Assembly (NCBI GenBank): GCA_964548865.1
Contig: CAZJTG010000004.1
Location: 1-41,948, forward strand
Direction: 5' to 3'
DNA length: 41,948 nucleotides
Origin: an uncultured Solibacteraceae bacterium
Lineage (GTDB): Bacteria > Acidobacteriota > Vicinamibacteria > Vicinamibacterales > SCN-69-37
This document shows positions 2,495-37,151 of the stretch, piece after piece. The notes below the pieces were generated by a model, which searched no databases, was not told the DNA's origin, and was given only the letters and a program-made list of their open reading frames with translations. Within the stretch, counting starts at the first letter, position 1. Every line of letters starts with the position of its first letter. Made by a program: the position numbers and the translations under genes.

Positions 2495-3337
2495 ATGTCT
2501 ACCCTGGAGCGGGTCGCGTCTGTGGTCTCTTCCTATTACGCGCGCGCGCGAAACCGCGCCGTGCCCTCGCGGGCGCGGCTCGGTTTGGCGTGCGCCGTGC
2601 TGTCTTTGGCCGCTCTGTCCATACGCGCGCGCGCGCAGAGCGTCTACCCGCCGGCGCCGCACTCCGAGGTCAGCCTGAAGACCCCGAAGGAACTGATCTC
2701 GGCTTTGCGCAGCCAGGACCCCGCGACGCAGAAAGCCGCGAAGGCGGTCATGGGCCGGGCCGACAAGGCCATGGTCGGCGCGTTGCTCGTCTACGGGGTC
2801 GGGGCCCGGCGCGACGCCGGCATGAAGGTCGTCCTGCGCATGGGCCGCCCCGCCATCCCGGCGGTGCTGGAGCTGCTGGACGACGAGCAGGCCGGCGCGG
2901 CCGCCGGCGGCGCCCTGTTCCAGCTGCTCGGCGCCCAGGACCAGGAGCGTCTGCCTGCCCTCGCGGCCTGCGCGAAGAAAAACCCCCGCGCCGGCGTCTC
3001 CTGCGCGATGACCGCCTTCAAGATCGCCGGCCCCGGCGCCTCCAAGCATGCGCGCGACCTCGGCTCCTGCGCTCGGGAGGGGGAGGACGAGGCGCGCGTG
3101 TACTGCGCGGCCGCCGCCGGCAAGCTCGGCGCCGGAGCCGCGGGGGCCCTGGTAGACCTGCTCGCCGCTCTCAAGGACCCTCATCCGGGCGTGCGCGCTC
3201 AGGCGGCTGAGGCCGTCGGTTTCGCCGGCAAGGGCTCGCCCAAGGCGGTTGCGGGCTTGAAGGCGGCCTCCGGAGACTCCTCTCCCGAAGTCGCCAAGAA
3301 GGCCAAGGCCGCGCTGAGGAGACTGACGGGTGCGTAA
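2495..3337 (+). CDS. secreted HEAT-repeat (PBS-lyase HEAT-like) protein
   Basis: The ATG follows a GAGGG Shine-Dalgarno. A hydrophobic signal-like segment reads LGLACAVLSLAALSIRARA|QS. HEAT-like units include LISALRSQDPATQKAAKAVMG, IPAVLELLDDEQ, LLAALKDPHPGVRAQAAEAVG and GDSSPEVAKKAKAALRRL. The TAA stop (3335-3337) overlaps the GTG start of the giant ORF. Confidence 0.75.
   Translation: MSTLERVASVVSSYYARARNRAVPSRARLGLACAVLSLAALSIRARAQSVYPPAPHSEVSLKTPKELISALRSQDPATQKAAKAVMGRADKAMVGALLVYGVGARRDAGMKVVLRMGRPAIPAVLELLDDEQAGAAAGGALFQLLGAQDQERLPALAACAKKNPRAGVSCAMTAFKIAGPGASKHARDLGSCAREGEDEARVYCAAAAGKLGAGAAGALVDLLAALKDPHPGVRAQAAEAVGFAGKGSPKAVAGLKAASGDSSPEVAKKAKAALRRLTGA

Positions 3338-37151: not shown

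Follow-up and report, generated by a model that had tools for sequence, protein, structure and literature searches.

A 33.8-kb gene of a conserved Elusimicrobiota family encodes an 11,273-residue probable fibrillar adhesin with a predicted beta-propeller head

The subject of this analysis is a single gene on contig CAZJTG010000004.1, together with the protein that it encodes and the genes around it. The stretch of DNA examined, called the window throughout, comprises positions 1 to 41,948 of that contig. The giant gene is a member of a conserved Elusimicrobiota family with conserved synteny, and its product is probably a fibrillar adhesin, i.e., a protein with a long modular stalk and an adhesive tip. 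An initial annotation of the window had reported one stop-free frame of 33.8 kb encoding 11,273 residues; we reproduced its coordinates exactly (Table 1). A stop codon at position 3324 lies in the same frame directly upstream of the GTG start. The computed mass of the protein is 1,178,561 Da, inside the 1.1 to 1.2 MDa that had been estimated, and its pI is 4.77. The rarity then attached to a protein of this size has to be tempered, since Elusimicrobiota had already been reported as a phylum in which proteins of >5,000 residues are over-represented (PMC11573180); the size is less exceptional than had been implied.

Table 1. Features of the giant gene and its product, followed by the other features of the window
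Feature	Residues of giant protein	Window positions	Strand	Details and basis
Giant gene		3330..37151	+	33,822 nt, 11,273 codons, GTG start, single terminal TGA
Shine-Dalgarno sequence GAGGAG		3316..3321	+	8 nt before the GTG at 3330; read from sequence
Signal peptide, Sec-type	1-29	3330..3416	+	sequence pattern, same in homologue P0001
Head core	~30-497	3417..4820	+	AlphaFold2 beta-propeller; sialidase/lectin-like Foldseek matches
Neck, 2-3 beta-sandwich domains	~498-798	4821..5723	+	profile arrays elsewhere, low-confidence model
Zone A, 45 tandem bacterial immunoglobulin-like (BIg) modules of ~125 aa	799-6691	5724..23402	+	iterative hidden Markov model (HMM)
Zone B, 10 modules of ~125 aa	6748-8012	23571..27365	+	iterative HMM, alignment
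Zone B', 6 degenerate B-like modules, period ~135 aa	~8013-8905	27366..30044	+	motif spacing, hhalign
Zone C, 8-9 modules of ~190 aa	8911-10713	30060..35468	+	iterative HMMs C and E
Tail segment 1, Cys pairs and FG-GAP-like loops	10714-10900	35469..36029	+	sequence, Pfam, motif scan
Tail segment 2, uncharacterised, including FN3-like pattern	~10901-11174	36030..36851	+	sequence pattern alone
C-terminal FlgD_ig, resembling a type IX secretion system (T9SS) sorting domain	~11175-11273	36852..37148	+	Pfam FlgD_ig
Very strong intrinsic terminator directly after purA		1518..1558	+	17-bp stem, 14 GC pairs, T-tract; upstream boundary of transcription unit
unk256, small conserved gene		1617..2387	+	tblastn, 34-72% aa identity in 7 distinct head loci
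Upstream HEAT-repeat gene, 280 aa, signal-peptide-like segment		2495..3337	+	Pfam HEAT_2
Downstream HEAT-repeat gene, 327 aa, signal-peptide-like N-terminus		37206..38189	+	Pfam HEAT_2, 4 stretches, E 1e-52
CHASE2-sensor adenylate/guanylate cyclase		38186..40258	+	Pfam CHASE2 and Guanylate_cyc

The giant frame is a genuine coding gene under constraint, as seen from its codon composition, its Shine-Dalgarno sequence, and ratios of nonsynonymous to synonymous substitution rates (dN/dS) below 1 wherever it was compared. Stop-free length is by itself weak evidence for a gene in this DNA because its GC content is so high (69%, ranging from 66 to 72% across the window) that a noncoding antisense open reading frame (ORF) reaches 6,398 aa; a second minus-strand ORF has 3,296 aa, and those in other plus-strand frames are as long as 3,489 aa. 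The GC content at third codon positions (GC3) of the giant frame, by comparison, stays within 0.91 to 0.99 in each 1.5-kb interval from start to stop. We determined dN/dS by the Nei-Gojobori method against the nearest orthologue at each end, covering aa 21-4122 and aa 8044-11273. The head is the most constrained part of the protein, with dN/dS of 0.11; the stalk gave 0.17 to 0.38 against the 5' orthologue (L003), and the last 3,214 aligned codons gave 0.36 against the 3' orthologue (L013), all of these ratios being probably overestimated because extreme GC3 bias compresses dS.

Long ORFs overlie the giant gene at 3171..22367 and 27315..37205 on the minus strand and at 13292..22480 and 22622..33091 on the plus strand. 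Both minus-strand ORFs were checked; their GC content at first codon positions (GC1) is ~0.96, the mirror image of the third positions of the giant frame, and they are stop-free because such a high GC1 leaves little room for stop codons, which begin with T. With the checked ones recognized as shadows on this basis, we rejected the long antisense and alternative-frame ORFs as genes, and naive ORF callers could mis-annotate them.

We also asked how far the assembly can be trusted, since the source is probably a metagenome. Three observations speak for an artefact or a pseudogene, that is, for a 33.8-kb frame that is chimeric, repeat-collapsed, or not translated as a single polypeptide: the metagenomic source, the very long spurious ORFs that GC-rich DNA yields here, and the state of the nearest orthologue, L003. 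L003 comes from an Elusimicrobiota metagenome-assembled chromosome (CP096137.1) and is collinear with window positions 1-15695 at 77 to 87% nucleotide identity. Its giant gene lacks a counterpart of giant aa 577-659, and the frame is interrupted twice, at a GGC repeat by an 8-nt indel (L003 positions ~16336-16369, window equivalent ~10020) and at a G-run by a 1-nt deletion (~20995, window equivalent ~14653). The coding signal of L003 nevertheless persists past both frameshifts, with dN/dS of 0.17 to 0.28 downstream; because these values are low, the lesions are read as assembly errors or very recent events rather than as marks of an old pseudogene.

The remaining evidence makes an artefact very unlikely. 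Independent assemblies are collinear with the gene at both ends, flanking genes included, and high GC3 runs evenly along one single frame. The complete 561-aa tail was found in 12 metagenome contigs, at 48 to 81% identity; none of the 12 tail ORFs meets a stop before the 5' edge of the retrieved region, which amounts to >3,200 open codons wherever the 8-kb flank is present in full, and at the other end of the gene a homologue, P0012, is open over 6,878 aa. Repeat collapse, a worry raised with the initial annotation, has no substrate: DNA self-comparison finds exact internal repeats of at most 21 bp, and its top internal high-scoring segment pair covers 97 bp at 72% identity. Since exact repeats are this short and the stalk modules are merely 17 to 35% identical in protein sequence, collapse or mis-joining is unlikely, and we rejected a repeat-collapse artefact.

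The protein is a mosaic most of which is absent from domain libraries. Pfam and NCBIfam were searched with tiles of 1,000 aa and with domain-sized pieces, and zone HMMs were built iteratively from the giant protein itself. About 95% of the protein has no match in any curated family: Pfam returned a weak Big_13, one clear FlgD_ig, and a borderline FG-GAP, with nothing else credible, and NCBIfam gave no match above its cut-offs. The profiles of zones A, B, and C are mutually unrelated by hhalign. The mosaic architecture and the order of zones that had been read from the sequence by eye were reproduced by these HMMs, as were the signal peptide, a head of about 470 residues, about 45 Ig-like modules (exactly 45 A modules), and eight calcium-loop modules (eight to nine C modules). 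Other proposals survived as counts or positions and lost their names. About 17 Big_1-like modules had been described; the number is close (10 clear and 6 degenerate), but Pfam offers no Big_1 match at E<=5. Similarly, two or three domains occupy the neck, where two IPT/TIG-like domains had been placed, and none matches Pfam TIG at E<=5. The cysteine pairs and loops of the proposed Cys-rich/FG-GAP-like segment are present, with Pfam FG-GAP falling just short (22.0 versus 22.1 bits). The FN3 domain was not upheld, as Pfam fn3 has no match at E<=5 and a sequence pattern is all that marks it. The hmmscan and AlphaFold checks proposed at the same time had mixed returns: the libraries were nearly blank on the tiles, while AlphaFold2 modelling of the head gave a beta-propeller.

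The head has no sequence match in Pfam, NCBIfam, or the PDB. A word-indexed search found three head homologues; an exhaustive HMMER search found 63. An AlphaFold model of aa 1-800 made with four sequences reached a mean predicted local distance difference test score (pLDDT) of 39 and was discarded without a fold search. With a 23-sequence alignment, the head core was modelled by AlphaFold2 at pLDDT 80.2 and a predicted template-modelling score (pTM) of 0.86. Foldseek comparison of this model with the PDB retrieved six-bladed sialidases (Neu2, NanI, NanC, and a pseudaminidase) and lectins (Photorhabdus PLL/PHL and Aleuria AAL) at E values of 1e-8 to 1e-5, with template-modelling (TM) scores of 0.55 to 0.65 for the best matches when normalised to the target. 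The head is larger than these targets (~470 versus 340 to 370 aa) and contains a variable insert at about aa 150-330. Its conserved residues are rich in aromatics and arginine: R47, Y57, W58, D76, W80, W113, W167, D195, H365, Y377, R379, R380, Y425, and Y438. The modelled sialidase/lectin-like fold and these residues suggest glycan binding and possibly cleavage.

Could the head be an enzyme? It has neither a RIP motif nor an Arg-triad signature, Asp-boxes of the canonical form are missing, with the variants SKDGQDW and DGSITW coming nearest to them, and neither Pfam nor NCBIfam gave a BNR, sialidase, or glycoside hydrolase (GH) family match. The head was therefore rejected as a GH33 sialidase despite its propeller fold; it is predicted to be a beta-propeller of the glycan-recognising type and not a demonstrable member of GH33. 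A broader proposal makes the giant protein a tethered enzyme or a device for predation or cell wall attack, with the propeller as an active glycosidase on a long stalk, a role of the kind suggested for domains of the giant proteins of Omnitrophota. The many sialidases among the top Foldseek matches are consistent with it, and so are the strong constraint on the head and the conserved D76, D195, H365, Y377, and R379/R380, which could form an active site; giant proteins of other uncultivated phyla have, in addition, been linked to attack on cells (bioRxiv 10.1101/2023.11.21.568195). We nonetheless consider this proposal rather unlikely, given the missing sialidase motifs and family matches, the nonenzymatic propeller lectins that match the head equally well, and the lack of any other enzymatic domain detected across the giant protein.

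Behind the head, the neck appears in the low-confidence first model as beta strands alone. Its two domain types (profile positions 485-585 and 677-760) recur as separate tandem arrays in other proteins (P0013, P0036, P0055, P0057, and P0069), and they are independent, uncatalogued families of stalk domains. The A modules are 17 to 35% identical to the reference module. Compared with the PDB, the A profile matched the RII repeat of MpAFP/MpIBP (4p99, 2.6e-8), SiiE (2yn3, 2.1e-5), and an RTX adhesin (5irb, 4.3e-5); each crystallised repeat is matched in register, by way of the core W...Y.v.v.a.DaAGN...tvD...sGTA. Big_13 (PF19077) passed its cut-off of 27 bits on two 1,000-aa tiles (41.1 and 33.6 bits) by summing partial matches; on single A modules it is weak, with 3 of the 45 reaching E<=0.01. 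The PDB matches show that the A modules are homologous to the BIg extender domains of RTX adhesins.

The later modules have no such relatives. B modules share the motif LPGET..PG...G.tG.P..tAG...V.avD.F.N and have no credible match in the PDB or Pfam, the best being FUS1p (E 0.06) and Ig_GEX2_N (E 0.038). In zone B', D.FGN anchors lie at aa 8084, 8219, 8371, 8508, 8644, and 8777, and hhalign relates it to B through a shared AG...D.F.N core alone (E 0.0068, probability 5.6%). C modules, for which there is no PDB match and no credible Pfam match, carry the calcium-loop-like motif VKvWlD.nGnG.FDpatD. Among 5.8 billion (5.8e9) proteins, fragmentary homologues numbered five for B and six for C, and in both cases the named ones are mostly from Elusimicrobia. 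By these motifs and by homology, Ca2+ may bind to the stalk and rigidify it. In MpIBP, RII repeats ~45 Å long are stiffened by Ca2+ at their linkers and form a rod of ~0.6 µm (PMC4083281, PMC7493085).

Features of both ends bear on export. At the N-terminus, the n, h, and c regions of a signal peptide can be read as MRKISWRR, LLAAAALAAV, and ..ADA|A, a pattern common to homologue P0001. The first tail segment holds the cysteine pairs 10721/10735 and 10751/10762 and the loops DVNGDGVPD and NKDGVVD. An FN3-like pattern, YAVKW...YEVQER...YSYRVRAISGAGVASNWS, follows at aa ~11046-11165. FlgD_ig (PF13860) then scores 43.5 bits, against a gathering threshold of 27, at aa ~11188-11257, and PorU, PorZ, and an M6-like T9SS cargo protein each end in a domain to which the last 110 residues align; the FlgD-Ig half of the C-terminal assignment made earlier thus holds, and its T9SS half is weighed below. 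The whole protein is acidic, with 788 Asp and Glu versus 560 Lys and Arg residues. A motif scan of it found no transmembrane segment, lipobox, or LPxTG motif. Cysteines are strikingly clustered: 42 of the 47 have a partner within 20 residues, compared with a mean of 7.1 and a maximum of 20 in 2,000 random trials. This spacing suggests disulfide-stapled loops, which would be present in some repeats alone. The paired cysteines are 6 to 17 residues apart and sit in individual modules across aa 1500-10762 (window ~7827-35615).

The kinship of the A modules raises the question of whether the protein is an RTX adhesin of the LapA, MpIBP, or SiiE type, exported by a type I secretion system (T1SS), with its N-terminus held in an outer membrane pore and its C-terminal region as the distal, ligand-binding end. 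Besides the BIg extenders, great size, acidity, and calcium-loop motifs are points of agreement. However, the 11,273 residues contain zero RTX nonapeptides (GGxGxDxUx) and no LapG TAAG site, and Pfam finds no HemolysinCabind match; the N-terminus is of the cleavable Sec type, and the C-terminus is FlgD_ig, not a T1SS signal. Nor are ABC transporter, membrane fusion protein (MFP), or TolC genes present in the window, where the flanks of the giant gene consist of purA, unk256, two HEAT-repeat genes, and genes for a CHASE2 cyclase, a DUF3307 protein, and a thiolase. An RTX adhesin is accordingly extremely unlikely; membership in that class was rejected on the missing repeats, LapG site, and T1SS genes in the window.

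We favor, as the likely reading, a Sec-exported fibrillar adhesin in which a sorting-like C-terminus serves for passage across or anchoring at the outer membrane, a stalk of ~70 modules spans the distance, and the propeller is the glycan-binding tip. Fibrillar adhesins carry their adhesive domain distal to the anchor, with the stalk between them (PMC8286594), and the 45 A, 16 B/B', and 9 C modules make up a stalk under the criterion of Monzon and Bateman. According to this proposal, the Sec signal peptide would take the chain across the inner membrane, and the paired cysteines would link up into short disulfide loops, in the periplasm or beyond it. The FlgD_ig C-terminus, by its resemblance to sorting domains, would act as the outer membrane translocation or anchoring element. 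Beyond it, the stalk would comprise, counted from the head, the 45 BIg modules, then ~16 beta-sandwich modules of a second type, and then 9 calcium-loop modules. If each module measured ~4.5 nm, a value taken from MpIBP RII, the A array would extend ~0.2 µm and the whole stalk ~0.3 µm. The N-terminal propeller would form the cell-distal tip and bind, or possibly cleave, a glycan on another cell or surface. More speculatively, the HEAT proteins, one of them translationally coupled, and the CHASE2 cyclase may aid or regulate export or assembly.

Several observations weigh against this adhesin reading. The closest orthologue, in a chromosome described as complete (CP096137.1), has its two frameshifts within the first 12 kb, and an intact giant gene is therefore not universal in assemblies. 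The head matches its sialidase and lectin neighbors at the level of fold alone, with query-normalised TM scores of 0.43 to 0.49 and 7 to 13% identity, and sialidase motifs are absent. On the tail, TIGR04183 (Por_Secre_tail) reaches 16.6 bits, below its cut-off of 23, which leaves the T9SS part of the earlier C-terminal assignment short of its threshold. By Pfam, the 42-kb window has no secretion system genes, including those for ABC, MFP, TolC, and T9SS components. T9SS is, moreover, described as confined to Bacteroidota (PMC11611037); we found no literature specific to FlgD_ig-type sorting domains or T9SS in Elusimicrobia. Because of the last three points against it, the outer membrane step and the identity of the anchored end are put forward as proposals. 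The surface location and the head as the cell-distal end are things that we infer.

Comparison with known systems places the giant protein in the known class of giant bacterial adhesins, with most of its building blocks uncatalogued. Like the RTX adhesins MpIBP, SiiE, LapA, and FrhA, it is megadalton-sized, acidic, and probably Ca2+ associated and has an array of BIg extenders, to which its A modules correspond. MpIBP of Marinomonas primoryensis has a mass of 1.5 MDa, and RTX adhesins hold out their ligand-binding region on the stalk's distal end (PMC5550230, PMC4083281, PMC7493085). Unlike the giant protein, they have no Sec signal; RTX repeats and a secretion signal at the C-terminus direct them out of the cell through a T1SS, and a plug at the N-terminus retains them. 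The polarity proposed here would be the reverse of theirs because the giant protein has a Sec signal and a FlgD_ig C-terminus and has no RTX repeats or LapG site. The repeats differ as well, ~120 identical copies in MpIBP contrasting with the divergent A modules.

In its signal peptide, Ig-like stalk, and C-terminal Ig-fold domain of a putative sorting or anchoring type, the protein resembles the T9SS adhesins of Bacteroidota (SprB and carriers of Por_Secre_tail or CHU_C). Both of these domains are established as anchors in fibrillar adhesins (PMC8286594). The giant protein differs from type-A T9SS cargo in its subthreshold TIGR04183 score, in its labelled relatives, which are Elusimicrobiota, and in the lack of T9SS genes in the window. 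By its sequence, the giant protein qualifies neither as an RTX adhesin nor as type-A T9SS cargo. With the huge proteins of Omnitrophota and Elusimicrobiota it shares a metagenomic origin in an uncultivated lineage, near invisibility to domain databases, and a presumed role at the cell surface. The largest Omnitrophota proteins far exceed it in size, reaching 85,804 aa (bioRxiv 10.1101/2023.11.21.568195), and no mix of enzymatic or multifunctional domains was detected in the giant protein; its architecture, orthologues, and synteny are resolved. As for the head, the modelled propeller fold is what it has in common with GH33 enzymes (Neu2 and NanI) and with the PLL/PHL and AAL lectins, from which sequence identity, motifs, and size set it apart.

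Complete, uninterrupted genes for giant surface proteins are rarely recovered from uncultivated bacteria, and the window provides a full-length reference architecture for this family. It combines RTX-type extenders with a Sec signal and a T9SS-sorting-like tail, and ~5,000 of its residues (the head, B, C, and most of the tail) fall in families that have no representative in Pfam, NCBIfam, or PDB sequences. The HMMs and the zone map can be used to stitch and annotate fragmentary homologues. Elusimicrobiota of this clade are ultra-small and often associated with a host or partner. If the head binds a glycan, it would offer a handle on how such bacteria attach to other cells.

All taxonomically labelled relatives of the giant protein are Elusimicrobiota, and nine Elusimicrobiota genome loci carry the head. 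The combination of head and A array recurs in many contig-truncated proteins, P0012 having the head and 44 A modules; homologues from public protein sets are all fragments cut off at contig ends. At the 3' end, the distances of C modules from the C-terminus are near identical, with nine modules in each of eight loci (L013 and L015-L021), and two further loci (L022 and L023) have 10 matches each. The number of C modules thus appears to vary slightly between lineages. In a set of distant tail orthologues with 48 to 54% identity (L019-L023), the C modules and tail layout are kept and the downstream genes differ.

This conservation is what could be expected if the protein were a structural part of the envelope, such as an S-layer-like coat, a sheath, or a tether between cells of one population, with no specific external ligand. 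The gene is chromosomal, with a fixed position next to housekeeping genes (purA and thiolase) across the clade, and is not a strain-specific island; the number and layout of its 3'-end modules are conserved. We regard a structural role as quite improbable all the same. A stalk and a head on a single chain are typical of fibrillar adhesins (PMC8286594), no surface-layer homology (SLH) or other lattice-forming domain was found with Pfam or NCBIfam, and a single copy of a 1.18-MDa protein would make a costly coat.

Upstream of the giant gene the order is purA, unk256, and a HEAT-repeat gene; downstream it is a second HEAT-repeat gene (in most loci), the CHASE2 adenylate/guanylate cyclase gene, a DUF3307 gene, and a thiolase gene. 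The stop codon of the upstream HEAT gene overlaps the giant GTG, and this gene adjoins the giant gene in nine of nine distinct head loci. No intrinsic terminator directly follows the giant gene. The downstream HEAT gene, whose product ends in a basic tail rich in Lys, Pro, and Ala, is kept after the giant gene in L012, L013, L017, and L018. Its stop is overlapped in turn by the start of the cyclase gene, which is kept downstream in L012-L018. The HEAT proteins may work alongside the giant protein in the periplasm, and the conservation of the cyclase suggests cyclic-nucleotide signalling tied to the giant locus.

A more far-reaching proposal, which we view as doubtful, is that Elusimicrobiota, a phylum outside those known to possess a T9SS, use an undescribed FlgD_ig-dependent route to move megadalton fibers across the outer membrane and anchor them. 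The cotranscribed, exported HEAT proteins would then be dedicated periplasmic chaperones or scaffolds, with the cyclase as a regulator; new domain families would be founded by the head, B, and C modules, and a new glycan-recognising propeller tip would attach the cell to partner or prey cells.

The small gene unk256 belongs to no Pfam or NCBIfam family and has a GC3 of just 0.79. A sigma-70-like promoter site matching 11 of 12 positions lies at 1693-1720, inside its ORF. The true start of unk256 is probably downstream of 1720 because homology begins at aa 21-52 in most loci and because the promoter-like site is internal.

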